NCBI RefSeq assembly: GCF_000497125.1
Contig: NC_090598.1
Span: 1,426,001 to 1,490,000, forward strand
DNA from: Spironucleus salmonicida
Taxonomy: Eukaryota
Length of the DNA: 64,000 nt
Reading direction: 5' to 3'
Part shown: one piece after another, positions 6,690-64,000 of the stretch
How the letters are laid out: every line of letters starts with the position of its first letter
Numbering within the stretch: position 1 is the stretch's first letter
Translations under genes and position numbers: made by a program
Notes under the pieces: model-generated
Seen by the model: only the letters and a program-made list of their open reading frames with translations
Told to the model about the DNA's origin: nothing
Database searches by the model: none

Positions 6690-6709
6690 ATTAATAATAG
6701 ATAATCCAA

Positions 6710-8185
6710 TCAGTCTAACTCGTCATCATTTAGTAAACTAAGTATATCCTATTACATAGTTTCATCTTTGTAACTATTTGCACTTTCTACAAGACCTAAT
6801 TGATGAGACTAGATCTGTTTCTGTTATTATGATTTATCTAAAATCAATATTGGGAATTAATAATCTTAACCAGCAGAAAACTTTAGACAAAACTTTTCAT
6901 TTTGCGATTAATATTTTGATATTTATTGATGTTCAAATGAATCTTCCTTAATTGTTTATTTAATAGGAGATAATTAATTAATATTTAGAAATGAATTATT
7001 CTACTCTTAATGCATTAGTTATGTTTAAGTAAAAGATTAGTTTTAGTTAGTGTGGTCCTAATGTTGTTATATATTAGTATTTTCAATTATAATCTCGCTT
7101 TTTATGCTATCTAGTTGCAAAATACAATTAGCATTTCCTATCTTTCGCTGAAAATATAGATCTCCTAAAGGGGATAAAACAATTAAATTTTGTTTGTTAG
7201 ATGGATGTAGTAAATTTTAACCTTCAATACTATAAACCAGTGAAATAATATCATTACCCAATAACTTGGCAAATTCCTACATTAAAATATTTTTACCAAT
7301 ATTAACACTGATAGCGGAAAAAGATGCATCTTTAAATATTTCTTTTATTGTTTCCTACTCATTTACTAGCTTTTCTACATATTTTTTATCATTAAAAGTA
7401 CTTAAAACACGTTATGCTTAGACTTAACATTAGTTAAAGAAGAATAAATTTTTTCGTTAAAATGTGCACCAAATTTAACGGACAGCTCCTATAGCTGTTG
7501 GATGAAGAAACTTTTGATATTAAATAGTTTTACTACTTATTTTAGCTCTCATATCTTAGTAGTTAACAAAATCGCTAATTTAAATGGAAAATTCAATTTC
7601 TTCATTGCTTTGAAAAGCTTTTAAAATAGCATTAGCAGTAGAAATTCTTGTAGGAAAAATAAAAATTTACTCATTTGAAGTAAATATAGGATGTTATTAT
7701 AAGTCTTAAAAAGATCCATATACCTTAGTTAGATTAATTTTTAGTATAGAATAAATTATTTTATATAATTCAATTAATTCAATGTCTAAATGTGATGAAA
7801 TACACGGAAATTCTATAGAAAGATGTGAATAAAACATAGTTTTATTGCTTTTAGATCGTATTTATCGTTTAAATCGAAGAAAATTTTTGTCACCTAAAAT
7901 TTTTAATGGAAAAATATCTGAAGCATTTAAAATTGAATTTAATTTCTATATATTAAGAGCTGAGAACTCATATATATAGTTCTTAGTATTATTCAATGTT
8001 TAACCATTAAAAGGTTGGTTTGAGCAAAATGTAGTATTTTCTGTGAAAAGGAGTAACTAGGAATGTTCAAAGAAGAATGCTACGTAAAAACGAGTACATA
8101 ATTGACTTATTTATCCAAAATATTTAAATGCTTCTTTAATAGCATAAGAAGTTTCAGAATGTAAAGTTACTTCGAATAAAGACAT
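6710..8185 (-). CDS. Hypothetical protein (~491 aa)
   Basis: Code-6 frame starting MSLFEVTLHSETSYAIKEAFKYFG, with an in-frame TGA at 6710-6712. Confidence 0.55.
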
Positions 8186-24800: not shown

Positions 24801-26063
24801 TATAATAATAGCTGATACCTATCCTGCCCACGTACTAATAAATAAATCGTGATTAAACTTGTTACCTTATACAGAATTTTTTAATTATTAATAGTACTCA
24901 TCAGTTTAATTAACCAAATATTTCAATTATGATTACTTTTTTATTTATTTTACAGTCATATCTGCTCCCTAAGAAAATTCTTAATCCGAATTAGCAGCAT
25001 CTTTTTAATCTTATGCAGATTGTAGTAATTGTTTTTATTTCTATAAAGCCATTAAAATATTGGCGTCATTATTCTGTGTATGTATTACAGCTTCACTTTC
25101 TACTATAACTTTACCTTTTTTATCGAATTATAAATTAATATAGTCTTCACCAAAGACTTTATCTTTACATAATTATATAAGTAAAAGTACATAAGACGGT
25201 TGATTTTATTCTTTAATTAATAATTACTCTCCAAATGTATTAAAAAATCTAAATTTTTATAAATCTGACCATGAACCTCGCTAAAATGGAACTGGTTATA
25301 AGAGCATAAATATAAGTTCATAAAATTCTTATGGTAATTATTACTGAGAATCCAAAGGTGGAATATTTTACTTGAGATGCTCTTTACCAACACTCAAAAC
25401 TTTCTATGCATACTATACATAGTCTCCCTCGTCTAAATCTTAAAATGGAAAGCGATTAAAAGCTAAGAAATATAGAGAGCATCCTAATGAATAGAAATCT
25501 GAAGCATAAGAATAAATACCATCTTTAAGTAAAGTTTCAGGGGCTCTATGCATATAACCACATTTACGTATTGATCTTTCTATATCATCGGTATCCAGAG
25601 GCTTACTTTTTGATATAGTACATGCTGATTCGAATTCAAATAATTTCAATACTCCATTCTGGTTAAGTAAAATATTTTATGGACATAAGTCATTATACAG
25701 AATTTGATTTTAATGTAAATAAGATAATGCATCTCTTAGATCTGCAGAAAATATTGCAATCGAGTTTATTGGTAAAACTTTATCTTTTAAAATAAGCTTT
25801 TGCAACGTATATGGTTAGCAGAGCTCTGTAACTAGAGTGACACCGGTATTAGTTTAAAAATACGAAATAATACTTATTATATTCGGATGCTACAATTAAT
25901 TTAATATGTGCACCTAATGTTTTATGGACTATGCTACTACTGGAACTGATGTATTGAACTCATGAGCTGCTTGAAATACAAGTGATCCATGTTAACGTAC
26001 CCGAAATATTTTAGAGCCTGAATTTCCTATCCCTAATTCCTCATAGATTTTATAGTTCTGCAT
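21882..26063 (-). CDS. ULK4: ULK4/RUNKEL-like pseudokinase with long helical (HEAT/ARM-like) C-terminus
   Basis: MQNYKIYEELGIG..., HPNII, DLRDALSYLH, ILYNDLCPQNILL (no HRD), KLFEFE (no DFG), RAPE, SDFYSLG. About 1393 aa. Confidence 0.7.
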
Positions 26064-26122
26064 TTTTAAAATTCAGATAATTATATTGAAACACTATAAT
26101 TAATTCCCTTTCAAATTTTAAA

Positions 26123-28978
26123 ATGGATTTATCAAAATATCAGACTAAATAGCAAAATCATCAATTCCCATCTGTATCAGAATTATTTTAAGATATTGAA
26201 TCGATAAATAACTATCTAGTGTAGGCATTCAGATCTTAAGATGGACCTGTTTTATAATCTTTATCAAGAGATTTTTTAAGACTAAAAACTTAATTTTAAG
26301 CATTATAAAGGATTAAACATATCAATGGTACCTATGAAGAATTATTTGTTAAAAATGGTAGAGCAGCACTTCAAGCTTTATTGAAAAATTGTATATTTGA
26401 TATATGGAACGATGTCACAGAAGCAGCATACTTAAACTTTTGTGTTGAGTACTATTAGAGATGTGATAAATCTTTACTTATGAATAAATATCGTCAGATC
26501 GACACAAACTAAGAATTTAGATTTTTCTTTTAATCTGATAATGGTATCGATGCTAATTTAAGTTTGTTTATTACAATATCTTTATTATAACTTAACGATA
26601 ATAATGATATTGAAATGTTTTTAGAAGGGTAGTATAGAGAAATTTCTCCAAAAAAGAGTAATATTGATATTAAAAATACACAACTTGAGTCAAAAAGTGA
26701 CTTAAGATTTTAATAAATTTAATCTAGTTCCGCACCTAAATAATCTAGCTAAATATATAGCCAGATTCAAAATAGACTTAATTCTTCTTAGAATTAATAG
26801 GATTAAACATATTTATAAAAATAGTTAGATATGCTAAGAGAAGAGCAGTAATAAATAGTTATATCTGCTACAGAAAAAATTGACAAATATAAATAAAAAT
26901 TAGGATAATATAGATCTCTTGAGAAAGAATTATCTAGTAAATTAGGTATTACTGAGACATAAAATGCAGTTCTTAAAGAAGAATTAGCAGGTAAAAATTA
27001 AAGAATATCGTAATTATAGAACAATTTAAATGAAATTGAAAGTAATTTTTAAATGAAATAATAAAATAATTTTTAAATAACATCAGACTATGAAAGATTA
27101 AAATCAGAAAATGAAAGATATATGGTAGACGTAAAAATATACTAAGAGAGAGCTGAATCAGCATAGCATTAACTGAAGGAATGTTCATAAGAACTACAGT
27201 CACTAAGACCATTATTACTGAAATCCTAATCGGAGGCTTCTATATCATAACATTTAAGGTAGAAACTTGTGGAAATGAATAATGAAAATGCTGACTTAGT
27301 GTAAAAATATAACTCTATTGTTGAGCAAGTTAAATAGCTTATCTAATAGTAAAAACTTATTTAGTAAGATAAATAAATTGCTGAGTAACAGGTTAGTAAT
27401 TTTTTGAATGATTAAAAATAGTCTTCGTAAATTCTGTAATAAAATAGTGAATATTAAAATCAAATAATTATCCTTTAAGGATAAGTTTAAAGCCTTAAGG
27501 AATAGTTATAGGTTACTAAAAATAAGTTATCTTAGTAAGATTATACTACTGAGATCTAAGAAAAATCCGAATAGTTATCATAAAAACTTACAGAAAATCT
27601 GAAATTAAAAGAAAGAGTAGCAGTATTTGAGGCTTAAATTCAAAGTAAATAAATAGAAATCTAGGAGTTAACATATAATGATAATTAGAAATAGTAATCA
27701 ATGATATAAGAGATATAGTCATTATAACAAAAACTTTAAGATATTTAAAATGATATTGAATCGACCTAATTCTACAAAACTTAAATTTCTCAAATGAAAA
27801 CTGAAATTTCATCATTTTAAAGTTAAGTTTAATAAAAGAGTTAATTACTTGACGATAAAAACGAAGACATAGGTAAGTTGAAATTATAAATTTAAGCCCT
27901 AACCGCAGATGCTGCTATGTAATCTAAAGCATCTGAACTCTAGGATATAATACGTAAATTGAAAGAATAAATTAATTAATTGGAAAATGAGAACACAGAC
28001 ATATAAAAAGCCACTAGAAAATTAGAAATAGAAGTCATCTCTTCTAAGGGTATTATTGAATAATACGAGTAACTTAAGACAGAATATACTGAAAAATGTG
28101 CATAGGTCAATAAGTAATAATCATAAATTTAAGAATTGAAACAATAATCCGACTAAAAAACTTCTGATATTGAATTGTTAACAAAACAACTTGATTTAGG
28201 GAAAGAGTAACTTTAATAACTTACAGAATAATTTAATGCAATATAAGAGTCTTAGGAGACTGATTTACTTACATCTACTAATGCTTCTGCTATGGAGTAG
28301 CAACTACAAGAAAAAGATGATATCATAAGAGATTTAAGAGATGTAGCGTCCTAGTATTAAAATCAGGCCCATGCTCTCTAAGATCAGTTAAATAATTCGG
28401 TTTCACATGATCGAGTAACTTAACTTCTGGAGTAAACTGAAAAATTAACATTCAAAATAAAAGATTTAGAGTCTGAAAACTCAGAATTAAAGAAAAACTC
28501 TTAAGATACCGATTATTTTGGGCATTCGCTTAATCCGACATAAAGAGAAATATAACTTGAAAAAGAAAATAAATCACTTAAAAATTAACTTGAGACCTAC
28601 GAATTTTCAGGACTGCAAGCAACATAAAATTCCTGCTTTAATTGTAGTTAGCTAAAATAGCAAATAGAAATGAAAACACACGAAATTGAAAATATTAAAG
28701 ACGAATTGGACTCCACAGCATAAGAACTCGAAATGTTGAGAGATTTCAGACTCAAAGAACTAGAGAATGAAATCGCATCACTTAAAATGAATAGTAAATC
28801 TGGAGGAGATGATATGATTAGATTAAAGCTCTAGCATTTAGTAGAAGATGAAATTGACGGTTTAGGCGGCCTAGATTACCTTGATGACGAATTTATGACT
28901 TACCAAGGCGACAAACCAAAGAAAAATTAAGAAGTTGAGAGAATTAAAAACAAAATTAAAGCGCTAATTGATATGTGA
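26123..28978 (+). CDS. Long coiled-coil protein (951 aa)
   Basis: Code-6 frame strongly enriched in Q/E/K/L heptad-like sequence. Confidence 0.65.
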
Positions 28979-29003
28979 TAACTTTTAAATTGTATAAAAT
29001 ACG

Positions 29004-34418
<5,415 letters not shown>

Positions 34419-34472
34419 AATTTGACAAACTAACTTAATTATATATGTATAATAAATATTATTAATATTGAA

Positions 34473-35231
<759 letters not shown>

Positions 35232-35257
35232 TAATAACAGTGTCAACTTTATTGTTA

Positions 35258-36184
35258 ATGAGATCAAAACATAATTTAAATAAGTAAAACCTAAGTAATA
35301 TTGAAGATAAAATAAACAATCCAGAGGCTGTATTGTTTTTAGATGTCTCGAGTAATAACATAACTAGTCTATAATAATTTAGCAATTTTATTTCAATCTA
35401 AGAACTTAAATTATCATACAATTTTGTTTTTGATCTATAATAAGTGACTTACTTATCAAATTTGCGAAATTTAAAATAATTAGATCTCACATTCAATCCT
35501 GTCTCTTAGAATACTGAATTTCGACTATTTTGCATAAGATTAATTCCAACATTAACAATGCTTAATATGAAACCTGTCACATCAGAAGAGTAAATCTAAT
35601 CTTCGTGTTATTAATTTTAAACACCTATACAATTTCCAGTTAGTCTAGACACACTAAGTCAACCTACTGAATTATTAAAAAATGAGACTTAATAAGAATC
35701 ACCTAAAACTTTAATTCCTAAAATGTAAGATGGTTAAAATATTTCTATTATTCAACAAATTAAAGATTTGTAAGAAGTAGAAGATTCTGATTCTACTTAT
35801 GACTTCCAGTCTTAATAATCTTAAACTTAAATGGTTCCAACTTTAAATCCAAAAGATTAAGTAGCTAAAGATAATACAATATAATAAAGCACATCTTTTC
35901 AAACTATGAGGAAATCTAGTTAGTAAACACGGTAATTACCTACTTTATCAGCCCCATCTATGTAAAAAGGTGGAATGCCTAAATAGGCTAATCCTTTAAC
36001 ACCAAAAAAGGAGAACAAACCGCCAATTAATCCCATTAAGAAGCCTGATATCAAAAAATCTGCTGAAAAATCAGAATTATAGTAAAAATTAATGTAGGCG
36101 ATTATGCCAATGTTAGATCTTTTGGATATACCACATTTAACACTGTTATAAGAAAATATTAATTAAAGAAGATAAAAAAAATGA
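35258..36184 (+). CDS. Leucine-rich-repeat protein, CFAP410/C21orf2-like
   Basis: LDVSSNNITSL, LKLSYNFV, LDLTFNPV and an LRRcap-like FRLFCIRLIPTLTMLN. The C-terminal LMQAIMPMLDLLDIPHL resembles the CFAP410 terminal helix motif. Confidence 0.65.
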
Positions 36185-41037: not shown

Positions 41038-42318
41038 TCACTCTAACTCAAATTTACTTCTAAGAAATATATATTATATAAAATCTTTACTCTTAACCGA
41101 TGGAATTTTTATAGTATTTTATATCATAGGTTAAAATTAAATTTATTTTATTAACTAAAGTTTTCCTAATTGACTTTATTATATACCTGGTTAAATTTGT
41201 TGTTATTTCCCTCTTACTTTAAGCTTAAGACGAATAACCTCTTATTTAAGAAATTAAACTATGTTAAACTCATCATCTTTTATTAATTAGGTTTTTGAAA
41301 TAATTTATTCATACTATTCTTAGAACTATTAACAATCAAATTCTATTACTAATTAAGTTTCAATGAGGAATAATGAAATATCGATTTTTTAATCTTTTAA
41401 CTAGTGAAACTAGAGTATACTATTGTATAAAATTTCATTTTTCAATATTTAATTAGACGCAAAACTTTACAAAATTATATCAAGAATTTACTATTAAAAA
41501 TCAAAAGATGCTAGAAGTTCCTCATCATTATAATACTCAACTTCGATTGGATTTTTTTAAGATAATTCTAAAAAATATTACGATAATAGCAATGTTAAAT
41601 TATACTAATAGTTATTCTAAGACAATTTGATTAGTTTTTATTTTAAAGAATAATAATGAGAATCTAGTTGCTAAATGCCGCTAATCTAAACAAAGGAATA
41701 AACTAAAAATGATGTAAAAAGTGAGTAATCAAAGGCAGTAATATCAAGTTGTTATTCATTCTTTTTAATAAATGTTATTTTATTAATGAATAAATTCTTG
41801 AAATAACTAGAAATTAATAACAATTAGTGGTTAAATAATAAATCTTATAGACTATATTAAAACTTAATCTATGAATCGGATAGATGTTATATGCTTTAAA
41901 TAAAATTAGTAATTTTAATATTTTCATTTAATCGAATATATTTAGTTAATAAATTACCATCAATTTATTACTACTATAATTAAGCTATTTATTATTCCTT
42001 TCTGATTAAAAGTTCTTTAAACAATATTATTTAATTAAGAGCTGATTTAAGCCCTTCTTCTAATTTTGTATATTAATTTTCACTTAAAATAGATAGTTCT
42101 GAAGGGAAATTAAGAGAAATTGACTACTAATCTTTTCTTAATAAATCAATTTACTATTTCAAAGTAGACACTTACTCATTTAATGAGATATTATCTAAAG
42201 AAACCTTATCATAATTCTATTCTAACGATTTTATTTTATTATTTTATAAAATTATTTGCTTCTTTAGAGCTAATATTTATTCTTATTATACCTTCTAGAT
42301 ATCTACATTTTACTGCAT
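41038..42318 (-). CDS. Hypothetical protein (~426 aa)
   Basis: Code-6 frame MQQNVDIQKVQQE... ending in TGA at 41038, convergent with the cullin-like gene. Confidence 0.5.
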
Positions 42319-42599
42319 TATAAAAATACATTTAAATTTATTATATATTTAATAATTAATAAGTATTATAATTTATTTAAAGCGAACCTGATTAACAATA
42401 CTTCATGATAATCTTATTAAAGCATATAGAGCTTATATTATCAGAATTTATAACCTTATTCTAACCTTAAACTCATAATTTTATGATATTTTATTTCATC
42501 ACCTTGCAATCCATAAGTTAAAAATAATCAATTATCATACTAAAGCAAAACTGTATAATAGTACTATTTGTCACGGCACTAGTTATCTCTGTATATGCT

Positions 42600-42674
42600 A
42601 AGACGGTGACGTCGCAGGACGTGGTGTACGCGCTGAAGCGCCAGGGCAAGACGCTCTACGGCTTCGGGATCTGA
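42600..42674 (+). pseudogene. H4: 5'-truncated histone H4 fragment at the array boundary
   Basis: Only [24 protein letters not shown] is present, joined directly to AT-rich unique DNA. Confidence 0.9.
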
Positions 42675-42856
42675 GTGATGCTATTCTTGTGGTACTCGTT
42701 GTGTGAGCGTGTGGTGCATAGGGCTTCCGTGTCTAGTGGGGTGGCGTACTTCCTGCACAGTGCCATAGTGCATATATGTAATATAATAATACTCATTCGG
42801 GCTTCCCGCAAGTATGATAGTGTATATAAATAATATAATACTAAGGACTCACGATT

Positions 42857-43234
42857 CCCGCAAAGTACCATACTGCCCGAGTATGGTATAATAGTACCAA
42901 ATTACGGCTCCCGCCCAAATGCCATACTTCACATATGCAACATTATAATCATAATCCTTCATGGCTCCCTTCCACTCGGCTGGTTTCCCATGGGCGGGAT
43001 GTCAAGGGGGCCTTGCCGAAGCCCTTGCCCTTGCCTTTTCCCAACGTCGGTTGGCATGCAGCGTATAATAATGTAATGTTGGTGTCCCTTCCGATATGTT
43101 AAAGTGGGAATAGGCAATATAATAAAGGGGATTTGCCCTTTCCCGCGAAGTATGATAGGGCATATATACGGTATTATAGTGAGTATTCCCGCTCCCCGCA
43201 AAGTACCATACTGCCCGAGTATGGTATAATAGTA
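42857..43234. repeat. 40-bp direct repeat within each H4 spacer (42857-42896 and 43195-43234), each containing a 9-bp-stem hairpin
   Basis: CCCGCAAAGTACCATACTGCCCGAGTATGGTATAATAGTA occurs twice, with inverted arms TACCATACT/AGTATGGTA. Confidence 0.9.
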
Positions 43235-43959
43235 GCAAATTACGCCTCCCGCCAAAACAGCATTCTGCACATAAATACGCGTGGGCGTATATAAATAATA
43301 CATATATGGCCTATAGCCACTATATGTGCGAGGTTCCTCTACCACCCCACACGGTATTCATATGCTCATAATGGCGAAGTGGGCCGTCGTCCACCTCGTC
43401 CCCACCAGAGGAGAGAACTCGCCCGGTTTGCCCTTGCCCTTGCCCTTCCCGGACGTCCGCAGGAGCTCGTCCGGAGGCTGGCAGTACCGCCCGGTCTCGC
43501 CCGGCGTGGCACGCACTTGCTTGGGCGGCGTGCGATGGCGCGAGATGACACCCGATGCATGGCACGGCGCGAGATCATCTTAGATGGCCTGCCTGCCGTG
43601 CCCCGCGCCCCGCGCCCATATGGGGCCTACGGGGCCGAGATATGGAGTTCCGGTGAAAATGAGTCTGCAGTTCTGCATATTGAACACGGTAAATTTAGTA
43701 GATAGATATTTGTATACATCACATATAACATACATACCTATATTCCATAAATCCCTATATGCATCTATATATACTTATACCTATATTCGCACACCGCAAC
43801 TACTTTCGTCACTATAACTATATATTATTCATATTAAAACTCGCTCCCGCCCCCGCCCCAACATATATATTTTATATAGCATATATAAGTATGGGTTCGC
43901 GAACCGATAGCTGGTTTCATCACCAACCTCATAATGCAGGAGTGAGGGTGCTATCAACA

Positions 43960-46900
43960 ATGTCTGGAAAAGGAAAGGGAAAAGGTTTTGGAAAGGCGAC
44001 AGACTCGGAGAACACTAGCGATAGTGTAGACCCTGTTGCTCTCACCGCCTAATAAATTCGTATTAGAAGCCTGTTCAAACAGGCACCTGCTCTACCCCAA
44101 CCCCAACCCCAGTCGATCGCTAGTCACATTTCTTCTACCATGAAGAAGCAATAGGCACCTCCAACGTCTAATGGTGACCCCTCGACTTTGACATATTCCC
44201 CCTTCACATAAGTTTCAAGCGTGAGACTGTTCAAGCAGGGCCAGGCAAGCCGGGAGGCTCCTGTGCTCTCAGATAAGACCAATAAATCTATCATGAGCTT
44301 CGTGAAAGCAAGAGAAGAAGAAAGAGCCCCGCAAGGTGCTCCGGACACTTCGGCTGCCGACACTCAGAATCGCGCGCAATTCCCTTCCACACAAATTCAC
44401 GGGGAAACTACAGCTGCGCTCGTTAACTGCCAAGACGAGTAAGCTTAGGAGGTAGCTAGTCTAGCTGCCCCTAACGCAGCGGAAGTGACTGAACAACCGC
44501 CCTCCTCATAGGTTGCCAGTTAAGAAGGGGCCCCAACCGATTAACCTAGCCTCTAACCAGAGAGCTAAGAGGAAAGCGAGGCCCCGCCTCGCCCGGATCC
44601 CCCAGATGCTCCGGACTACGGGATAGACCCACCAATTCCCAGGCTACCCTCACAAAACATACCGGTAGAGCCCAGAGTCAGACCTCAACTGAATTCAATC
44701 ACCCGGTATGGTATCGTCCACGAGACGAGATCTCAGACAAGACTTATTCCTGAGACACGTGCCCCAAGCACAACAGAAAGTAACGAACACGCTAGACCAA
44801 GGAACCCTGACAAGCCTTTTGAATGTCAGGCATGCACCTTCGCGTCGTCCGACCCCACGAGCCTGCTGAGACATCACGCGCTCACGAGAGGCGGATAGCA
44901 CGATATAAAGTTCCCGCTACTTAGATACAAAGAAGTTTACGAAGACCCCAAACTCTTCAGATTCTACTGTGGAATCTGTAATCACCCTTTTACGAAGAAA
45001 TTAAATGTCATGCTCCACCTAATGGATGGAAAATGCAAGAACAAGTAAGGAATGACAAACGAAGCTGCCCAATTGCTAGTAAGAAATAGAGATGTCTATA
45101 GCCTCGAACTAGAGGAATAGCTGGCAAAAGCATCGGCCGCCAAGGCGGCAAGAGCGAAGAGTATAGCAGAATAAATAACTGCACCCAAAATAGGACTTCC
45201 ACCGGAAGCGACGATCAACCTATCTCCTTTAGGTTGCGCTACGGACAAGAAGAATTTAGCATTACGTTTTATCCAGATGAAACTGGAGATTGAAAACGGA
45301 GCTGACATCCTAGACGCCTTTAACTAATTCATAGGCGCATTCAGAAGAAAACAGGCATGTAACACCAGACGCGATACCAATCAAAAATAGATAGATTTCT
45401 GCTTTTAGAGAGGACAGACTGGAAAGGCATGGAACCTTATTAAGGAAAATTAGAACAAGTAGAACCTATCCCCAGAAAACGCCAGCTCCAGACCGGACCT
45501 GGTTAGAGAGTTATTTTAGGAAAACCGGAAACCCGAATATGAATCGGCATCGCGGTAGGGATCAGTAAGAACAGCGCTGCAAGCGCCAACGGCAGAAGAG
45601 ATTACGAAGATAATCCTATAGTACCGGGATGGCAAAGCAGGCGGCCCGAGTGGCATTCTTCCAGCCCACCTGAAAGAACTTGAGAAGTCTCATCACATCT
45701 CAAACATTCTTGCGAAGGTATACAAACTAATACTTGATACACCATCCCTAGTGAACAAGACTAGGAGACTATTCGAATACCGGATAATCTTCATCCCAAA
45801 GAACGCGACCAAGTTTAGACCGATTTGCATACAGGAGTTATTCCTATAAGTCCTGCACAAAGCACTGGCAGAGAAGATGAAGCAGCAACTAACCCTAGGC
45901 AATTATCAATTCGCCTTTACCAAAAACGCTCTCCTCAGAGCCAAATATTAAGCTAATATCATGCTTAAGAATGGGCTCACCCTTACTTCCCTTGACGTAC
46001 GAAACGCCTTTAACGCCGTACCTCATAAAGTAATCGAAGAAGAACTCGTGAAAGCCGGCCTAGCACCGGAAACCAACCAATACATCCAAGCCTTTTTGAT
46101 GGCGCGGAATGCGGAGGGGTTGGAAAGGCTAGGCACCGGCGTCCCCCAAGGGGATCCATTGTCCATGATGCTATTCTGTGTTGTAATGCGCCCGATCCTA
46201 GATCGGCTCGCAGGCAAATACAAGGTTATCGCATCGTACGCGGACGATGTCCTGATAGGTCACGATTCAGGAGTAAACCTCAAAGACTGTGAAAGCGTCT
46301 TTGCAGACTACGGGCTAACCCTGTCTGTGGAGAAATGCATAACAGCCTCCCCCACCCAAGCGATTAAATTCGTTGGGTAAGAATTTAAGGACAAACCGAT
46401 ACCGTTAACAGATCACTTGCTCCAAACCGCTCAGGATGCCTTCCTACTCCTCGAGCAATCGAAGCTCGGGACCACCCAATAACGGTTCCAGATGTTTGTA
46501 CAATGTATTGTTCCCTCAGTCAACTATGGCCCACTTGTGGACGTCACGGATGACTAGGAAGCCGGATATACGAAGATAGACGACAGCCTTGTTGCCACCA
46601 CCTCGCTGATAGCGGGACTAAGCATAAAGATTGAAACTCTATTGGATAGCTAGATCCGGGGTGGAATGAACGTGATCACACCTGGTCGCTTCTACCCACT
46701 CATGACCGCAGCACGCGATGAATTCCATGAGAACAATCACTGCGTCTTTAGAAATATCAGGGAGAAAATCAAAGAACTCGTTCCGGACGATCCAGATCCT
46801 GGACGCCCGATGATTTTCCCCTGCATCTTAGGAGCCACCAGGCTCCCTGGACAGTCTGTCCAGTATCTCTTGAACTCGGCTTTCGGCCCGGTAGCGACAC

Positions 46901-47520
46901 CCAGTAAAACCCATTTGTGTACGCTATGCGGTACCCCTAAGATTGGAGATCACGACCAAAAATGCAATAGAAATAGCGGAATCCGAATAGTTAGACACAA
47001 CAAGGCTGTCTCAGCCGCGATGAACTGCCTAGCGAAGTACGAGCCCCGTGAAATAACACGTCAATAAGCTCCTGAAGGAAAGTTTTATCCGGACTTCAGA
47101 ATCATTGTAAGTAAAATCCTGACAGTAGACCTAGATGTCACGTTTACTTCGCAAGAGAATATGGACGCGAAATTTGCAGAAAAGGTTAGAAAGCATAAAT
47201 TGCCTGACCCTAACCAGACTATAATCCCAATGGTTATCTCACATGAACTTTAAATTCATCGCGAGACACTCAAGTTGTTGAAATTCCACTTCCCGGAGTT
47301 CAACTACAGGAAATTTATGGAAGCGGTGGGAACTGCGACCTGTTTCTATAGACAGGACTCAGTTCGAAACAACACTGCACGATAGATCATAGCTCTCCAG
47401 GATAGGAACTATGGTTTAGAGGAAGACGTTGCAATACGTCTTAATTGGAGAAATGCTGCGAAGAATAACAATCGCAGGCGCCAGCACGCCAGAGGGAGTG
47501 CTGTCGCACCCGGGCCGTGA
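43960..47520 (+). CDS. H4(1-13)-fused retrotransposon ORF: zinc fingers + reverse transcriptase + CCHC + restriction-like endonuclease (1186 aa; first element-internal ATG at 44140)
   Basis: No in-frame TGA from the H4 ATG to 47518. Motifs: CQAC..HH..H, CGIC..H..C, GKAGGPSG, FIPK..FRPI, LDVRNAFN, GVPQGDPLS, YADD (46237), CTLC..H..C, RHN, YPDF, DLDVT, EKVRKH. Confidence 0.92.
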
Positions 47521-47610
47521 GGCCAGGGAAAACAAGAAAACCCCCCCCGACAGGGGCAGTAAAGATCCCATATACGCAATGAGGAATGGCAGTACTCGAG
47601 TGATCTTTTA

Positions 47611-47642
<32 letters not shown>
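44000..47642 (+). mobile_element. Site-specific RLE-type non-LTR retrotransposon, copy 1 (full length, 31-A tail)
   Basis: Interrupts H4 after GGAAAGGCGA. Single RT-RLE ORF, ~90-nt 3' UTR, poly(A) at 47612-47642, and H4 resumes at CAAATCCGAG. Confidence 0.95.
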
Positions 47643-47643
<1 letters not shown>

Positions 47644-47895
47644 AAATCCGAGAAGGATGCACTCACAGGCATCACCAAGCCTGCCATACGCAGGTTGGCG
47701 CGCAGAGGTGGCGTGAAGAGGATCTCGTCCACGATCTACCCCCAGACGCGCGAGGTGCTGAAGGCGTTCCTGGACGTGGTCATCAGGGACTCGCTGACCT
47801 ACACTGAGCACGCGCAGCGCAAGACGGTGACGTCGCAGGACGTGGTGTACGCGCTGAAGCGCCAGGGCAAGACGCTCTACGGCTTCGGGATCTGA
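47643..47895 (+). pseudogene. H4: 3' remainder of interrupted histone H4 (copy 1)
   Basis: Identical to intact H4 from CAAATCC to TGA. Confidence 0.92.
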
Positions 47896-49180
47896 GTGAT
47901 GCTATTCTTGTGGTACTCGTTGTGTGAGCGTGTGGTGCATAGGGCTTCCGTGTCTAGTGGGGTGGCGTACTTCCTGCACAGTGCCATAGTGCATATATGT
48001 AATATAATAATACTCATTCGGGCTTCCCGCAAGTATGATAGTGTATATAAATAATATAATACTAAGGACTCACGATTCCCGCAAAGTACCATACTGCCCG
48101 AGTATGGTATAATAGTACCAAATTACGGCTCCCGCCCAAATGCCATACTTCACATATGCAACATTATAATCATAATCCTTCATGGCTCCCTTCCACTCGG
48201 CTGGTTTCCCATGGGCGGGATGTCAAGGGGGCCTTGCCGAAGCCCTTGCCCTTGCCTTTTCCCAACGTCGGTTGGCATGCAGCGTATAATAATGTAATGT
48301 TGGTGTCCCTTCCGATATGTTAAAGTGGGAATAGGCAATATAATAAAGGGGATTTTCCCTTTCCCGCGAAGTATGATAGGGCATATATACGGTATTATAG
48401 TGAGTATTCCCGCTCCCCGCAAAGTACCATACTGCCCGAGTATGGTATAATAGTAGCAAATTACGCCTCCCGCCAAAACAGCATTCTGCACATAAATACG
48501 CGTGGGCGTATATAAATAATACATATATGGCCTATAGCCACTATATGTGCGAGGTTCCTCTACCACCCCACACGGTATTCATATGCTCATAATGGCGAAG
48601 TGGGCCGTCGTCCACCTCGTCCCCACCAGAGGAGAGAACTCGCCCGGTTTGCCCTTGCCCTTGCCCTTCCCGGACGTCCGCAGGAGCTCGTCCGGAGGCT
48701 GGCAGTACCGCCCGGTCTCGCCCGGCGTGGCACGCACTTGCTTGGGCGGCGTGCGATGGCGCGAGATGACACCCGATGCATGGCACGGCGCGAGATCATC
48801 TTAGATGGCCTGCCTGCCGTGCCCCGCGCCCCGCGCCCATATGGGGCCTACGGGGCCGAGATATGGAGTTCCGGTGAAAATGAGTCTGCAGTTCTGCATA
48901 TTGAACACGGTAAATTTAGTAGATAGATATTTGTATACATCACATATAACATACATACCTATATTCCATAAATCCCTATATGCATCTATATATACTTATA
49001 CCTATATTCGCACACCGCAACCACTTTCGTCACTATAACTATATATTATTCATATTAAAACTCGCTCCCGCCCCCGCCCCAACATATATATTTTATATAG
49101 CATATATAAGTATGGGTTCGCGAACCGATAGCTGGTTTCATCACCAACCTCATAATGCAGGAGTGAGGGTGCTATCAACA

Positions 49181-49480
49181 ATGTCTGGAAAAGGAAAGGG
49201 AAAAGGTTTTGGAAAGGCGAAAAGACACAAATCCGAGAAGGATGCACTCACAGGCATCACCAAGCCTGCCATACGCAGGTTGGCGCGCAGAGGTGGCGTG
49301 AAGAGGATCTCGTCCACGATCTACCCCCAGACGCGCGAGGTGCTGAAGGCGTTCCTGGACGTGGTCATCAGGGACTCGCTGACCTACACTGAGCACGCGC
49401 AGCGCAAGACGGTGACGTCGCAGGACGTGGTGTACGCGCTGAAGCGCCAGGGCAAGACGCTCTACGGCTTCGGGATCTGA
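49181..49480 (+). CDS. H4: Histone H4 (99 aa)
   Basis: [17 protein letters not shown]...[20 protein letters not shown]...[18 protein letters not shown]. Confidence 0.98.
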
Positions 49481-50765
49481 GTGATGCTATTCTTGTGGTA
49501 CTCGTTGTGTGAGCGTGTGGTGCATAGGGCTTCCGTGTCTAGTGGGGTGGCGTACTTCCTGCACAGTGCCATAGTGCATATATGTAATATAATAATACTC
49601 ATTCGGGCTTCCCGCAAGTATGATAGTGTATATAAATAATATAATACTAAGGACTCACGATTCCCGCAAAGTACCATACTGCCCGAGTATGGTATAATAG
49701 TACCAAATTACGGCTCCCGCCCAAATGCCATACTTCACATATGCAACATTATAATCATAATCCTTCATGGCTCCCTTCCACTCGGCTGGTTTCCCATGGG
49801 CGGGATGTCAAGGGGGCCTTGCCGAAGCCCTTGCCCTTGCCTTTTCCCAACGTCGGTTGGCATGCAGCGTATAATAATGTAATGTTGGTGTCCCTTCCGA
49901 TATGTTAAAGTGGGAATAGGCAATATAATAAAGGGGATTTTCCCTTTCCCGCGAAGTATGATAGGGCATATATACGGTATTATAGTGAGTATTCCCGCTC
50001 CCCGCAAAGTACCATACTGCCCGAGTATGGTATAATAGTAGCAAATTACGCCTCCCGCCAAAACAGCATTCTGCACATAAATACGCGTGGGCGTATATAA
50101 ATAATACATATATGGCCTATAGCCACTATATGTGCGAGGTTCCTCTACCACCCCACACGGTATTCATATGCTCATAATGGCGAAGTGGGCCGTCGTCCAC
50201 CTCGTCCCCACCAGAGGAGAGAACTCGCCCGGTTTGCCCTTGCCCTTGCCCTTCCCGGACGTCCGCAGGAGCTCGTCCGGAGGCTGGCAGTACCGCCCGG
50301 TCTCGCCCGGCGTGGCACGCACTTGCTTGGGCGGCGTGCGATGGCGCGAGATGACACCCGATGCATGGCACGGCGCGAGATCATCTTAGATGGCCTGCCT
50401 GCCGTGCCCCGCGCCCCGCGCCCATATGGGGCCTACGGGGCCGAGATATGGAGTTCCGGTGAAAATGAGTCTGCAGTTCTGCATATTGAACACGGTAAAT
50501 TTAGTAGATAGATATTTGTATACATCACATATAACATACATACCTATATTCCATAAATCCCTATATGCATCTATATATACTTATACCTATATTCGCACAC
50601 CGCAACCACTTTCGTCACTATAACTATATATTATTCATATTAAAACTCGCTCCCGCCCCCGCCCCAACATATATATTTTATATAGCATATATAAGTATGG
50701 GTTCGCGAACCGATAGCTGGTTTCATCACCAACCTCATAATGCAGGAGTGAGGGTGCTATCAACA

Positions 50766-51065
50766 ATGTCTGGAAAAGGAAAGGGAAAAGGTTTTGGAAA
50801 GGCGAAAAGACACAAATCCGAGAAGGATGCACTCACAGGCATCACCAAGCCTGCCATACGCAGGTTGGCGCGCAGAGGTGGCGTGAAGAGGATCTCGTCC
50901 ACGATCTACCCCCAGACGCGCGAGGTGCTGAAGGCGTTCCTGGACGTGGTCATCAGGGACTCGCTGACCTACACTGAGCACGCGCAGCGCAAGACGGTGA
51001 CGTCGCAGGACGTGGTGTACGCGCTGAAGCGCCAGGGCAAGACGCTCTACGGCTTCGGGATCTGA
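50766..51065 (+). CDS. H4: Histone H4 (99 aa)
   Basis: Identical intact copy. Confidence 0.98.
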
Positions 51066-52350: not shown

Positions 52351-52650
52351 ATGTCTGGAAAAGGAAAGGGAAAAGGTTTTGGAAAGGCGAAAAGACACAA
52401 ATCCGAGAAGGATGCACTCACAGGCATCACCAAGCCTGCCATACGCAGGTTGGCGCGCAGAGGTGGCGTGAAGAGGATCTCGTCCACGATCTACCCCCAG
52501 ACGCGCGAGGTGCTGAAGGCGTTCCTGGACGTGGTCATCAGGGACTCGCTGACCTACACTGAGCACGCGCAGCGCAAGACGGTGACGTCGCAGGACGTGG
52601 TGTACGCGCTGAAGCGCCAGGGCAAGACGCTCTACGGCTTCGGGATCTGA
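52351..52650 (+). CDS. H4: Histone H4 (99 aa)
   Basis: Identical intact copy. Confidence 0.98.
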
Positions 52651-53935: not shown

Positions 53936-56900
53936 ATGTCTGGAAAAGGAAAGGGAAAAGGTTTTGGAAAGGCGACAGACTCGGAGAACACTAGCGATAG
54001 TGTAGACCCTGTTGCTCTCACCGCCTAATAAATTCGTATTAGAAGCCTGTTCAAACAGGCACCTGCTCTACCCCAACCCCAACCCCAGTCGATCGCTAGT
54101 CACATTTCTTCTACCATGAAGAAGCATTAGGCACCTCCAACGTCTAATGGTGACCCCTCGACTTTGACATATTCCCCCTTCACATAAGTTTCAAGCGTGA
54201 GACTGTTCAAGCAGGGCCAGGCAAGCCGGGAGGCTCCTGTGCTCTCAGATAAGACCAATAAATCTATCATGAGCTTCGTGAAAGCAAGAGAAGAAGAAAG
54301 AGCCCCGCAAGGTGCTCCGGACACTTCGGCTGCCGACACTCAGAATCGCGCGCAATTCCCTTCCACACAAATTCACGGGGAAACTACAGCTGCGCTCGTT
54401 AACTGCCAAGACGAGTAAGCTTAGGAGGTAGCTAGTCTAGCTGCCCCTAACGCAGCGGAAGTGACTGAACAACCGCCCTCCTCATAGGTTGCCAGTTAAG
54501 AAGGGGCCCCAACCGATTAACCTAGCCTCTAACCAGAGAGCTAAGAGGAAAGCGAGGCCCCGCCTCGCCCGGATCCCCCAGATGCTCCGGACTACGGGAT
54601 AGACCCACCAATTCCCAGGCTACCCTCACAAAACATACCGGTAGAGCCCAGAGTCAGACCTCAACTGAATTCAATCACCCGGTATGGTATCGTCCACGAG
54701 ACGAGATCTCAGACAAGACTTATTCCTGAGACACGTGCCCCAAGCACAACAGAAAGTAACGAACACGCTAGACCAAGGAACCCTGACAAGCCTTTTGAAT
54801 GTCAGGCATGCACCTTCGCGTCGTCCGACCCCACGAGCCTGCTGAGACATCACGCGCTCACGAGAGGCGGATAGCACGATATAAAGTTCCCGCTACTTAG
54901 ATACAAAGAAGTTTACGAAGACCCCAAACTCTTCAGATTCTACTGTGGAATCTGTAATCACCCTTTTACGAAGAAATTAAATGTCATGCTCCACCTAATG
55001 GATGGAAAATGCAAGAACAAGTAAGGAATGACAAACGAAGCTGCCCAATTGCTAGTAAGAAATAGAGATGTCTATAGCCTCGAACTAGAGGAATAGCTGG
55101 CAAAAGCATCGGCCGCCAAGGCGGCAAGAGCGAAGAGTATAGCAGAATAAATAACTGCACCCAAAATAGGACTTCCACCGGAAGCGACGATCAACCTATC
55201 TCCTTTAGGTTGCGCTACGGACAAGAAGAATTTAGCATTACGTTTTATCCAGATGAAACTGGAGATTGAAAACGGAGCTGACATCCTAGACGCCTTTAAC
55301 TAATTCATAGGCGCATTCAGAAGAAAACAGGCATGTAACACCAGACGCGATACCAATCAAAAATAGATAGATTTCTGCTTTTAGAGAGGACAGACTGGAA
55401 AGGCATGGAACCTTATTAAGGAAAATTAGAACAAGTAGAACCTATCCCCAGAAAACGCCAGCTCCAGACCGGACCTGGTTAGAGAGTTATTTTAGGAAAA
55501 CCGGAAACCCGAATATGAATCGGCATCGCGGTAGGGATCAGTAAGAACAGCGCTGCAAGCGCCAACGGCAGAAGAGATTACGAAGATAATCCTATAGTAC
55601 CGGGATGGCAAAGCAGGCGGCCCGAGTGGCATTCTTCCAGCCCACCTGAAAGAACTTGAGAAGTCTCATCACATCTCAAACATTCTTGCGAAGGTATACA
55701 AACTAATACTTGATACACCATCCCTAGTGAACAAGACTAGGAGACTATTCGAATACCGGATAATCTTCATCCCAAAGAACGCGACCAAGTTTAGACCGAT
55801 TTGCATACAGGAGTTATTCCTATAAGTCCTGCACAAAGCACTGGCAGAGAAGATGAAGCAGCAACTAACCCTAGGCAATTATCAATTCGCCTTTACCAAA
55901 AACGCTCTCCTCAGAGCCAAATATTAAGCTAATATCATGCTTAAGAATGGGCTCACCCTTACTTCCCTTGACGTACGAAACGCCTTTAACGCCGTACCTC
56001 ATAAAGTAATCGAAGAAGAACTCGTGAAAGCCGGCCTAGCACCGGAAACCAACCAATACATCCAAGCCTTTTTGATGGCGCGGAATGCGGAGGGGTTGGA
56101 AAGGCTAGGCACCGGCGTCCCCCAAGGGGATCCATTGTCCATGATGCTATTCTGTGTTGTAATGCGCCCGATCCTAGATCGGCTCGCAGGCAAATACAAG
56201 GTTATCGCATCGTACGCGGACGATGTCCTGATAGGTCACGATTCAGGAGTAAACCTCAAAGACTGTGAAAGCGTCTTTGCAGACTACGGGCTAACCCTGT
56301 CTGTGGAGAAATGCATAACAGCCTCCCCCACCCAAGCGATTAAATTCGTTGGGTAAGAATTTAAGGACAAACCGATACCGTTAACAGATCACTTGCTCCA
56401 AACCGCTCAGGATGCCTTCCTAATCCTCGAGCAATCGAAGCTCGGGACCACCCAATAACGGTTCCAGATGTTTGTACAATGTATTGTTCCCTCAGTCAAC
56501 TATGGCCCACTTGTGGACGTCACGGATGACTAGGAAGCCGGATATACGAAGATAGACGACAGCCTTGTTGCCACCACCTCGCTGATAGCGGGACTAAGCA
56601 TAAAGATTGAAACTCTATTGGATAGCTAGATCCGGGGTGGAATGAACGTGATCACACCTGGTCGCTTCTACCCACTCATGACCGCAGCACGCGATGAATT
56701 CCATGAGAACAATCACTGCGTCTTTAGAAATATCAGGGAGAAAATCAAAGAACTCGTTCCGGACGATCCAGATCCTGGACGCCCGATGATTTTCCCCTGC
56801 ATCTTAGGAGCCACCAGGCTCCCTGGACAGTCTGTCCAGTATCTCTTGAACTCGGCTTTCGGCCCGGTAGCGACACCCAGTAAAACCCATTTGTGTACGC

Positions 56901-57496
56901 TATGCGGTACCCCTAAGATTGGAGATCACGACCAAAAATGCAATAGAAATAGCGGAATCCGAATAGTTAGACACAACAAGGCTGTCTCAGCCGCGATGAA
57001 CTGCCTAGCGAAGTACGAGCCCCGTGAAATAACACGTCAATAAGCTCCTGAAGGAAAGTTTTATCCGGACTTCAGAATCATTGTAAGTAAAATCCTGACA
57101 GTAGACCTAGATGTCACGTTTACTTCGCAAGAGAATATGGACGCGAAATTTGCAGAAAAGGTTAGAAAGCATAAATTGCCTGACCCTAACCAGACTATAA
57201 TCCCAATGGTTATCTCACATGAACTTTAAATTCATCGCGAGACACTCAAGTTGTTGAAATTCCACTTCCCGGAGTTCAACTACAGGAAATTTATGGAAGC
57301 GGTGGGAACTGCGACCTGTTTCTATAGACAGGACTCAGTTCGAAACAACACTGCACGATAGATCATAGCTCTCCAGGATAGGAACTATGGTTTAGAGGAA
57401 GACGTTGCAATACGTCTTAATTGGAGAAATGCTGCGAAGAATAACAATCGCAGGCGCCAGCACGCCAGAGGGAGTGCTGTCGCACCCGGGCCGTGA
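53936..57496 (+). CDS. H4(1-13)-fused retrotransposon RT-RLE ORF, copy 2
   Basis: Colinear with copy 1 at offset +9976, with TGA at 57494-57496. Only point substitutions seen. Confidence 0.9.
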
Positions 57497-57618
57497 GGCC
57501 AGGGAAAACAAGAAAACCCCCCCCCCGACAGGGGCAGTAAAGATCCCATATACGCAATGAGGAATGGCAGTACTCGAGTGATCTTTTACAAAAAAAAAAA
57601 AAAAAAAAAAAAAAAAAA
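53976..57618 (+). mobile_element. Site-specific RLE-type non-LTR retrotransposon, copy 2 (full length, 29-A tail)
   Basis: Same 5' and 3' junctions in H4 as copy 1. Poly(A) at 57590-57618. Confidence 0.95.
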
Positions 57619-59156: not shown

Positions 59157-59456
59157 ATGTCTGGAAAAGGAAAGGGAAAAGGTTTTGGAAAGGCGAAAAG
59201 ACACAAATCCGAGAAGGATGCACTCACAGGCATCACCAAGCCTGCCATACGCAGGTTGGCGCGCAGAGGTGGCGTGAAGAGGATCTCGTCCACGATCTAC
59301 CCCCAGACGCGCGAGGTGCTGAAGGCGTTCCTGGACGTGGTCATCAGGGACTCGCTGACCTACACTGAGCACGCGCAGCGCAAGACGGTGACGTCGCAGG
59401 ACGTGGTGTACGCGCTGAAGCGCCAGGGCAAGACGCTCTACGGCTTCGGGATCTGA
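59157..59456 (+). CDS. H4: Histone H4 (99 aa)
   Basis: Identical intact copy. Confidence 0.98.
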
Positions 59457-60741: not shown

Positions 60742-63700
60742 ATGTCTGGAAAAGGAAAGGGAAAAGGTTTTGGAAAGGCGACAGACTCGGAGAACACTAG
60801 CGATAGTGTAGACCCTGTTGCTCTCACCGCCTAATAAATTCGTATTAGAAGCCTGTTCAAACAGGCACCTGCTCTACCCCAACCCCAACCCCAGTCGATC
60901 GCTAGTCACATTTCTTCTACCATGAAGAAGCAATAGGCACCTCCAACGTCTAATGGTGACCCCTCGACTTTGACATATTCCCCCTTCACATAAGTTTCAA
61001 GCGTGAGACTGTTCAAGCAGGGCCAGGCAAGCCGGGAGGCTCCTGTGCTCTCAGATAAGACCAATAAATCTATCATGGGCTTCGTGAAAGCAAGAGAAGA
61101 AGAAAGAGCCCCGCAAGGTGCTCCGGACACTTCGGCTGCCGACACTCAGAATCGCGCGCAATTCCCTTCCACACAAATTCACGGGGAAACTACAGCTGCG
61201 CTCGTTAACTGCCAAGACGAGTAAGCTTAGGAGGTAGCTAGTCTAGCTGCCCCTAACGCAGCGGAAGTGACTGAACAACCGCCCTCCTCATAGGTTGCCA
61301 GTTAAGAAGGGGCCCCAACCGATTAACCTAGCCTCTAACCAGAGAGCTAAGAGGAAAGCGAGGCCCCGCCTCGCCCGGATCCCCCAGATGCTCCGGACTA
61401 CGGGATAGACCCACCAATTCCCAGGCTACCCTCACAAAACATACCGGTAGAGCCCAGAGTCAGACCTCAACTGAATTCAATCACCCGGTATGGTATCGTC
61501 CACGAGACGAGATCTCAGACAAGACTTATTCCTGAGACACGTGCCCCAAGCACAACAGAAAGTAACGAACACGCTAGACCAAGGAACCCTGACAAGCCTT
61601 TTGAATGTCAGGCATGCACCTTCGCGTCGTCCGACCCCACGAGCCTGCTGAGACATCACGCGCTCACGAGAGGCGGATAGCACGATATAAAGTTCCCGCT
61701 ACTTAGATACAAAGAAGTTTACGAAGACCCCAAACTCTTCAGATTCTACTGTGGAATCTGTAATCACCCTTTTACGAAGAAATTAAATGTCATGCTCCAC
61801 CTAATGGATGGAAAATGCAAGAACAAGTAAGGAATGACAAACGAAGCTGCCCAATTGCTAGTAAGAAATAGAGATGTCTATAGCCTCGAACTAGAGGAAT
61901 AGCTGGCAAAAGCATCGGCCGCCAAGGCGGCAAGAGCGAAGAGTATAGCAGAATAAATAACTGCACCCAAAATAGGACTTCCACCGGAAGCGACGATCAA
62001 CCTATCTCCTTTAGGTTGCGCTACGGACAAGAAGAATTTAGCATTACGTTTTATCCAGATGAAACTGGAGATTGAAAACGGAGCTGACATCCTAGACGCC
62101 TTTAACTAATTCATAGGCGCATTCAGAAGAAAACAGGCATGTAACACCAGACGCGATACCAATCAAAAATAGATAGATTTCTGCTTTTAGAGAGGACAGA
62201 CTGGAAAGGCATGGAACCTTATTAAGGAAAATTAGAACAAGTAGAACCTATCCCCAGAAAACGCCAGCTCCAGACCGGACCTGGTTAGAGAGTTATTTTA
62301 GGAAAACCGGAAACCCGAATATGAATCGGCATCGCGGTAGGGATCAGTAAGAACAGCGCTGCAAGCGCCAACGGCAGAAGAGATTACGAAGATAATCCTA
62401 TAGTACCGGGATGGCAAAGCAGGCGGCCCGAGTGGCATTCTTCCAGCCCACCTGAAAGAACTTGAGAAGTCTCATCACATCTCAAACATTCTTGCGAAGG
62501 TATACAAACTAATACTTGATACACCATCCCTAGTGAACAAGACTAGGAGACTATTCGAATACCGGATAATCTTCATCCCAAAGAACGCGACCAAGTTTAG
62601 ACCGATTTGCATACAGGAGTTATTCCTATAAGTCCTGCACAAAGCACTGGCAGAGAAGATGAAGCAGCAACTAACCCTAGGCAATTATCAATTCGCCTTT
62701 ACCAAAAACGCTCTCCTCAGAGCCAAATATTAAGCTAATATCATGCTTAAGAATGGGCTCACCCTTACTTCCCTTGACGTACGAAACGCCTTTAACGCCG
62801 TACCTCATAAAGTAATCGAAGAAGAACTCGTGAAAGCCGGCCTAGCACCGGAAACCAACCAATACATCCAAGCCTTTTTGATGGCGCGGAATGCGGAGGG
62901 GTTGGAAAGGCTAGGCACCGGCGTCCCCCAAGGGGATCCATTGTCCATGATGCTATTCTGTGTTGTAATGCGCCCGATCCTAGATCGGCTCGCAGGCAAA
63001 TACAAGGTTATCGCATCGTACGCGGACGATGTCCTGATAGGTCACGATTCAGGAGTAAACCTCAAAGACTGTGAAAGCGTCTTTGCAGACTACGGGCTAA
63101 CCCTGTCTGTGGAGAAATGCATAACAGCCTCCCCCACCCAAGCGATTAAATTCGTTGGGTAAGAATTTAAGGACAAACCGATACCGTTAACAGATCACTT
63201 GCTCCAAACCGCTCAGGATGCCTTCCTACTCCTCGAGCAATCGAAGCTCGGGACCACCCAATAACGGTTCCAGATGTTTGTACAATGTATTGTTCCCTCA
63301 GTCAACTATGGCCCACTTGTGGACGTCACGGATGACTAGGAAGCCGGATATACGAAGATAGACGACAGCCTTGTTGCCACCACCTCGCTGATAGCGGGAC
63401 TAAGCATAAAGATTGAAACTCTATTGGATAGCTAGATCCGGGGTGGAATGAACGTGATCACACCTGGTCGCTTCTACCCACTCATGACCGCAGCACGCGA
63501 TGAATTCCATGAGAACAATCACTGCGTCTTTAGAAATATCAGGGAGAAAATCAAAGAACTCGTTCCGGACGATCCAGATCCTGGACGCCCGATGATTTTC
63601 CCCTGCATCTTAGGAGCCACCAGGCTCCCTGGACAGTCTGTCCAGTATCTCTTGAACTCGGCTTTCGGCCCGGTAGCGACACCCAGTAAAACCCATTTGT

Positions 63701-64000
63701 GTACGCTATGCGGTACCCCTAAGATTGGAGATCACGACCAAAAATGCAATAGAAATAGCGGAATCCGAATAGTTAGACACAACAAGGCTGTCTCAGCCGC
63801 GATGAACTGCCTAGCGAAGTACGAGCCCCGTGAAATAACACGTCAATAAGCTCCTGAAGGAAAGTTTTATCCGGACTTCAGAATCATTGTAAGTAAAATC
63901 CTGACAGTAGACCTAGATGTCACGTTTACTTCGCAAGAGAATATGGACGCGAAATTTGCAGAAAAGGTTAGAAAGCATAAATTGCCTGACCCTAACCAGA
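60742..64000 (+). CDS. H4(1-13)-fused retrotransposon RT-RLE ORF, copy 3 (runs off window)
   Basis: Colinear with copy 1 at offset +16782. Confidence 0.88.
60782..64000 (+). mobile_element. Site-specific RLE-type non-LTR retrotransposon, copy 3 (3' end outside window)
   Basis: Same 5' junction GGAAAGGCGA|CAGACTCGG. Confidence 0.93.

Follow-up and report, generated by a model that had tools for sequence, protein, structure and literature searches.

The window analysed here is a 64,000-nt stretch of the Spironucleus salmonicida genome (contig NC_090598.1, positions 1,426,001 to 1,490,000 of the forward strand), and all positions below refer to this window. Its right part consisted of a tandem array of histone H4 genes (42600–64000, plus strand), some of which were interrupted by a retrotransposon with a reading frame joined to the H4 start codon. 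The GC content stepped at 42600 from 22% in the left part to approximately 50% in the right part. The array was built of 1585-bp units with one H4 gene each; units carrying the 3636-bp insert had a period of 5221 bp. The H4 gene comprised 99 codons and ended with TGA. Its first 39 bases were found seven times in the array, continuing as intact H4 in four cases (49181–49480, 50766–51065, 52351–52650 and 59157–59456, all on the plus strand) and as insert sequence in the other three. The array H4 protein contained both the H4 tail and the core and matched histone-fold Pfam families. It was 88% identical to H4 of Hexamita inflata and 88–92% identical to several metagenomic H4 proteins; identities with most other named H4 proteins among the matches listed were 69–81%.

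In the first interrupted unit, the H4 start codon and codons 1–13 (43960–43998, plus strand) consisted of the same letters as in the intact units, and the sequence departed from H4 from 43999 onwards. The region upstream (43861–43959, plus strand) contained an AT-rich block (43861–43893) and a presumed short leader, and it probably has a promoter role, judged by the diplomonad features described in an excerpt of PMC1805757. A three-codon upstream open reading frame (ORF; ATG CAG GAG TGA, 43934–43945) lay out of frame, 26 nt 5' of the H4 ATG, and is relevant only if the H4 leader exceeds approximately 26 nt.

Translated with table 6 (TAA and TAG as Gln, TGA as the sole stop), the frame opened by the H4 ATG at 43960 continued through the insert for 1186 codons, up to its single in-frame TGA at 47518–47520 (fused frame 43960–47520, plus strand). 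The in-frame fusion and the 1186 codons without TGA had been claimed in a first-pass annotation of this DNA, and further details of that annotation were borne out as well: the TAA TAA at 44050–44055 was in frame and read Gln-Gln, the next in-frame ATG lay approximately 140 nt inside the element (44140, followed by 44293), the element leader had no TGA in the ORF frame and no stop-containing 5' untranslated part, and translation across the joint gave the peptide described (...GFGKATDSENTSDSVDPVALTAQQIR). There were 33 in-frame TAA or TAG codons in the fused frame, and the other two frames contained 26 and 22 TGA. The long ORF exceeds chance. The same 1186-residue protein is annotated in the public record; this reflects the longest-ORF choice of a gene caller and is no evidence for the start.

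The 5' junction was identical in all three inserted copies (H4 ATGs at 43960, 53936 and 60742). Element copy 1 (43999–47642, plus strand) measured 3644 nt including a tail of 31 A (47612–47642). Between its ORF and the tail lay a 3' untranslated part (47521–47611) with the pentamer AGTGA at 47599–47603, 8 nt before the A run; the extended motif AGTGAT ended 7 nt before it. The remainder of the interrupted H4 gene followed (47643–47895, plus strand), resuming within codon 16 and ending with TGA at 47893–47895; 6–8 bases of the target AAAAGACA were gone. Copy 2 (53975–57618, plus strand) had an ORF extending to 57496 and a tail of 29 A (57590–57618), and copy 3 (60781–64000, plus strand) was cut by the window end. 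A 16-nt telomere-like repeat of the CCCCAA type, read as PQPQPQ, was present in all three copies (44095–44110, 54071–54086 and 60877–60892), with an expectation of 0 in shuffled sequences.

The only Pfam family detected in the 1186-residue protein was the reverse transcriptase (RT) domain RVT_1 (residues 612–808, 45793–46383, plus strand; E 3.6e-23); no Ulp1-like protease domain was found among the Pfam families. N-terminal to the RT, two zinc-finger motifs of the C-x2-C-x12-H type were read by eye (residues about 305–367, 44872–45060, plus strand). They recurred in the consensus of an alignment with ten relatives (A1), and no Pfam zinc-finger family matched them in the window protein. The C-terminal part contained a CCHC motif (C987, C990, H998 and C1002), RHN, PD...D and K1075, as in restriction-like endonucleases (46918–47184, plus strand), and residues C987, C990, H998, C1002, H1013 and K1075 were invariant or near-invariant in A1. 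R2 proteins were the best matches of known structure (E 6e-6 for the RT part); the endonuclease stretch aligned to the R2 endonuclease region, although those stretches alone were not significant. Putative zinc fingers, RT and CCHC plus endonuclease followed one another in a single ORF. An RT of the non-LTR type (LTR, long terminal repeat), a C-terminal CCHC with PD-(D/E)-K endonuclease and sequence-specific insertion with poly(A) were all found, which is R2-like architecture. On sequence grounds, we classify the insert as a site-specific non-LTR retrotransposon of the R2-like restriction-like-endonuclease type, with H4 as its target between codons 13 and 14.

Assignment to three named lineages was not supported. 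For the R2 clade proper, the target did not agree (H4 codon 13/14, not the 28S rRNA gene), and no match to a hepatitis delta virus (HDV)-like ribozyme was obtained. For the NeSL clade, the criterion was a Ulp1-like cysteine protease domain preceding the RT (nematode NeSL, excerpt of PMC4640811), and no Pfam family of this kind was found in the window protein. Membership in the Giardia GilM/GilT (Genie) lineage did not agree with a quick LG+G4 tree of 41 rows, in which the Giardia sequences formed a clade of their own (5 rows, support 100) and the window element was placed outside it. In this tree, which contained no named R2, NeSL or CRE references, the window element stood alone at the end of a long branch; the tree did not resolve the group of 32 rows to which it belonged, largely metagenomic sequences and unnamed database proteins. 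The best relatives were approximately 30% identical to the window protein, residues 1–448 were common to none of them, and the only named ones were 'Reverse transcriptase/endonuclease' proteins of Giardia.

Comparison with known systems separated the element from each of them. The closest named proteins were those of GilM/GilT (P0009 and P0020, both with 28% identity, E 2.0e-49 and 7.3e-44, respectively; P0020 reached 31% in another search), which share the domain order and a diplomonad host with the window element. They differ in that the window element targets H4, and the telomere-associated tandem arrangement that characterises GilM/GilT was not seen here. With R2, the element shares the arrangement of its one ORF, in which putative zinc fingers come first, then the RT and finally the CCHC plus endonuclease at the C-terminus. 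In both, insertion is confined to a single precise position within a gene repeated in tandem, and only part of the units are occupied. R2 depends on co-transcription with its target, and its RNA is released from the co-transcript by a self-cleaving ribozyme; the window element likewise had no evident promoter-like leader of its own. In contrast to R2, which targets rRNA genes, it was inserted in a protein-coding gene transcribed by RNA polymerase II (Pol II), lacked an HDV-like ribozyme match, brought along an AGTGA signal as well as a long poly(A) tail and had an ORF in frame with a host start codon; sequence likeness to R2 was confined to the RT (E 6e-6). SLACS, CZAR, CRE and NeSL-1 are also of the endonuclease type and lie a few bases inside their target, a short gene that is present in many copies and transcribed by Pol II; SLACS uses the promoter of its target. 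Their target RNA, however, is non-coding, without a captured start codon or peptide. The clades and targets of the spliced-leader elements are described in the excerpt of PMC4640811, as is the Ulp1-like cysteine protease domain of nematode NeSL, which was not found in the window protein.

Interruption at the same H4 codon was also observed outside the three copies. The ORF of a metagenome locus (L003, 46% GC), open under table 6, was 29% identical to the window protein over residues 544–1150. Approximately 90 nt past its stop, and 10 nt past an AGTGAT motif, the sequence continued with H4 residues about 14–32 of the Hexamita type. Two database proteins (P0207 and P0208) were H4 proteins in which a different sequence took the place of the tail and gave way to H4 exactly at KHRSK/HRSK. 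P0207 counts as a single chimera and not as 38, because the 38 members of its cluster were ordinary H4; P0208 was also a single sequence. In addition, the spacer of every array unit contained a minus-strand H4 relic (43009–43041 in the first unit) that ended exactly after codon 13, with seven synonymous and no non-synonymous differences. Since the same codon was hit in L003, P0207, P0208 and the relic, insertion at codon 13/14 characterises a diverged lineage and is no accident of this array. A second inverted relic of the H4 5' end was also present in every unit (43430–43456, minus strand); it read (T)SGKGKGKG and had ACG in place of the ATG. Both inverted relics look like the remains of older interrupted H4 copies.

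Among 80 metagenome loci with relatives, an H4 flank was found only at L003, at its 3' end. The tree did not resolve whether L003 and the window element are sisters, and a search with the L003 protein returned no close relative (best identities 27–34%). Scans of viral contigs and genome contigs gave no matches. Related RT-endonuclease ORFs of 900–2900 codons (table 6) occurred on the AT-rich metagenome contigs L002, L008–L010, L014, L019, L029 and L030, some of them with N-terminal parts that by eye resembled Ulp1-type proteases. These ORFs are best regarded as a large unnamed radiation.

Contigs of a DNA run (X1) and of runs X5–X8, which were taken as RNA by guess only, were compared with the array. 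In X1, the depth was 78–98 on spacer contigs and 39–48 on element contigs, a ratio that fits occupation of about half of the units (three of seven in the window). In X5–X7, the contig of the upstream spacer and H4 start had a depth of 112–262, while the 5' contigs of the element reached 4380–6893 and its 3' contigs up to 12827. The element was thus shown to be abundantly transcribed, the runs being RNA-like by guess. In the same three runs, non-templated poly(A) followed by what we take to be adapter sequence was attached at 42689–42692, 15–18 nt after the H4 stop and 11–14 nt past an AGTGA that overlaps this stop. This spacing fits the AGTGA signal reported for Spironucleus, which poly(A) follows at a distance of about 14 nt (excerpt of PMC3916229), and the 3' untranslated parts of 9–14 nt in 122 of 134 cDNAs (excerpt of PMC1805757). 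All ten listed loose ends bearing presumed adapters shared one orientation, and the four inside the element all matched the H4 poly(A) ends in this respect; the element RNA is therefore of ORF sense if the libraries were stranded. The 5'-most element contigs of X5–X7 began at 43971–43973, within H4 codons 4–5, which is the limit of a 31-mer graph. The joint to be expected of intact H4 (43999 to 47643) did not appear among the junctions listed, from which rows at the A run were dropped. Overall, the run data are compatible with a chimeric RNA driven by H4 and do not prove it.

Two further observations concerned the spacers in the RNA-like runs. Contigs over the spacer (42836–43546, minus strand) had a depth of 1329–4752, and one of them carried T10 before 42836. 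The latter suggests that the minus strand gives rise to a polyadenylated RNA, with its end 13 nt past the TGA (42849–42851) of a 37-codon ORF (42849–42962). At positions 43214 and 43801, the RNA-like runs had G and T, and DNA run X1 had C at both. Among the units of the window, the T corresponding to 43801 was confined to inserted ones (two of three). These variants could mean that the strains differ or that only some of the units are expressed.

The first-pass annotation had proposed that the element hijacks both the promoter and the ATG of H4. A site-specific element in H4, an open leader, abundant RNA and the logic of the template speak for this proposal; translation from the H4 ATG and the start of transcription are the parts that we infer. 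A role of the tail peptide as a nuclear localisation signal (NLS) or acetylation substrate and a coupling to the cell cycle are speculative. Because full-length copies keep everything from 43999 onwards, the 5' end of the template RNA must lie at the junction or further upstream, and the junction is only 39 nt past the H4 ATG. In Giardia, leaders measure 1–10 nt and promoters are short and located at the start codon, according to the excerpt of PMC1805757. With promoters this short and a template that starts at or before the junction, the source that suggests itself is the H4 promoter. The first AUG of an RNA of this kind (apart from the possible ORF at 43934) is that of H4, in frame and without a stop, so that the fusion would be made. 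Capture of the H4 promoter and ATG by the element is the most coherent reading, and we lean towards it with modest confidence.

The proposed cycle would begin with transcription of the inserted units from the H4 promoter, and the RNA would end at the AGTGA poly(A) signal that the element itself supplies. Translation would begin at the H4 AUG close to the cap and yield a single protein composed of the 13-residue H4 tail and the zinc-finger, RT and endonuclease parts. This protein would nick another H4 gene and reverse-transcribe the element RNA from its poly(A) tail. The cDNA would end in a copy of the H4 leader, which could then pair with the target, giving the uniform 5' junction; pairing of the cDNA end with the target is a 5' junction model from R2 work. 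We regard as doubtful a stronger version, in which the element, without a promoter or start codon of its own, can live only as an in-frame 'exon trap' of H4, and in which the captured H4 tail would function as a histone mimic, carrying the RT-endonuclease into the nucleus by the histone import and chaperone route when the H4 genes are transcribed and replicated.

Several points weigh against capture of the promoter and start codon. The first 180 nt of the element had no TGA in any of the three frames, so that the match between the H4 frame and the element frame is a one-in-three event. With p(TGA) = 0.0146, the estimated joint chance of a leader that is in frame and open was approximately 0.17 if the true start is at 44140, or approximately 0.08 if it is at 44293. 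The fusion by itself is not beyond chance. The frame was kept in the three copies as claimed, in that none of them had a TGA, but they are not independent evidence: the copies differed by only 1–3 substitutions and in homopolymer length and therefore count as one observation, the product of one event or of array duplication. Codon-usage log-odds in the ORF frame were negative in the 5' region (−3.5 for 43999–44139 and −4.0 for 44140–44292), as opposed to a minimum of +2.5 and a mean of +14.0 in equally long stretches of the core (18 of 18). This is weak evidence, because the N-terminal part is of low complexity and the core had served to train the model. The AT-rich stretch before the ATG at 44293 resembled diplomonad initiators. 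The 5' junctions of the relatives were not recovered, and no H4-tail motif preceded the RT in the 80 loci or in 297 proteins; the ORFs of L002 and L006 ran off the contig start. The run data consisted of contigs only, without read starts, per-base depth or strand. Element contigs held 26–29 letters of H4, below the bridging rule of 31, and the junction words could derive from DNA in the libraries.

The strongest competitor is a start at an internal AUG (44293 or 44140), from a shorter RNA with an AT-rich initiator or by internal initiation, with 43999–44292 as a leader and the frame match as coincidence. The negative codon usage over the first 98 element codons and the AT-rich stretch directly 5' of the ATG at 44293 both point in this direction, as do the one-in-three chance of a frame match and the cheapness of an open frame where TGA is the sole stop. 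An RNA beginning at approximately 44280 could not, however, regenerate the 5' 290 nt that were kept in three of three copies. On an RNA driven by H4, moreover, the in-frame H4 AUG would come first and the fusion would be made anyway, and leaders of approximately 300 nt would be unlike the 1–10 nt given for Giardia in the excerpt of PMC1805757. Frame 0 was also free of TGA throughout the 111 codons that precede 44293; in 44140–44292, the two other frames had three and one. We therefore hold an internal start to be unlikely, although it deserves serious weight.

A second alternative is that the copies are immobile, one old insertion having been multiplied together with its H4 unit by unequal crossing-over, and that the fusion is without function. 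The near-identity of the copies with common flanks agrees with such a history, and the spacing of 5221, 1585, 1585, 1585, 5221 and 1585 bp resembles a higher-order repeat. The copies had nevertheless retained a frame without TGA in all three cases (1186 codons in two, up to the window end in the third), their poly(A) lengths differed (31 and 29), and flank variants differed among the inserted units. Abundant element RNA, occupation of about half of the units in X1 and relatives at the same site elsewhere likewise argue against immobility, which we consider improbable. Release of the RNA from an H4 co-transcript by an R2-like self-cleaving ribozyme at the 5' junction, followed by cap-free translation, is very improbable: R2 elements use this route and the 5' region (43920–44200) folded slightly better than shuffled sequences, but the fold score was weak (z −1.79, 10 of 200 shuffles equal), the transcript is mRNA-like with its own poly(A) signal and tail, and no Rfam family, HDV-like or other, matched 42600–49500 at E up to 5, in line with the difference from R2 noted in the first-pass annotation, although a divergent ribozyme could escape the models.

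The left edge of the array was abrupt. At 42590–42610, directly after the AT-rich flank, the array opened partway through an H4 coding sequence (…CAGCGC|AAGACGG elsewhere in the array). No contig joining flank and array at 42599/42600 was present in four runs, in which 42300–42483 was without coverage, and the start at 42600 may be a true edge or an assembly join. Each spacer contained a direct repeat of 126 nt with 83% identity between its two copies (42810–42935 and 43148–43273). In the left flank, two long uninterrupted ORFs with kinase domains and one coiled-coil-like ORF followed one another (21882–35459); the ORF at 29004–35459 had long N, I and Q runs at its start. The intergenic spaces here were 59 and 25 nt, the sequence was AT-rich before the start codons, and all stops were TGA. 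The close packing of these ORFs indicates a very compact genome. Hexamitine diplomonads have an alternative genetic code and few introns (excerpt of PMC11787283). The compact flank genes, the 88% identity to H. inflata H4, the AGTGA signal and the Giardia-like RT relatives make a hexamitine diplomonad the probable host, in preference to a ciliate; the genetic code assumed in the first-pass annotation is right in both cases.

The described targets of endonuclease-type site-specific retrotransposons are rRNA, snRNA, tRNA and spliced-leader genes and microsatellites, according to the excerpt of PMC4640811, and no published histone-gene-specific element of this type was found in our literature searches; PMC6564038 deals with other elements, those of Tetrahymena, and has no bearing here. 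The element presented here is R2-like, lies in a protein-coding multigene family and shares its reading frame with the start codon of the host gene; if the preferred reading is true, it represents a natural capture of promoter and start codon. The H4 fusion makes the translation route of such elements directly testable and has a bearing on the design of R2-based tools for site-specific insertion, with cargo placed in frame in a chosen gene. For the diplomonad host, the finding bears on histone gene dosage, because about half of the units are interrupted, and the element may obtain both its transcription and its translation by way of the H4 start codon.

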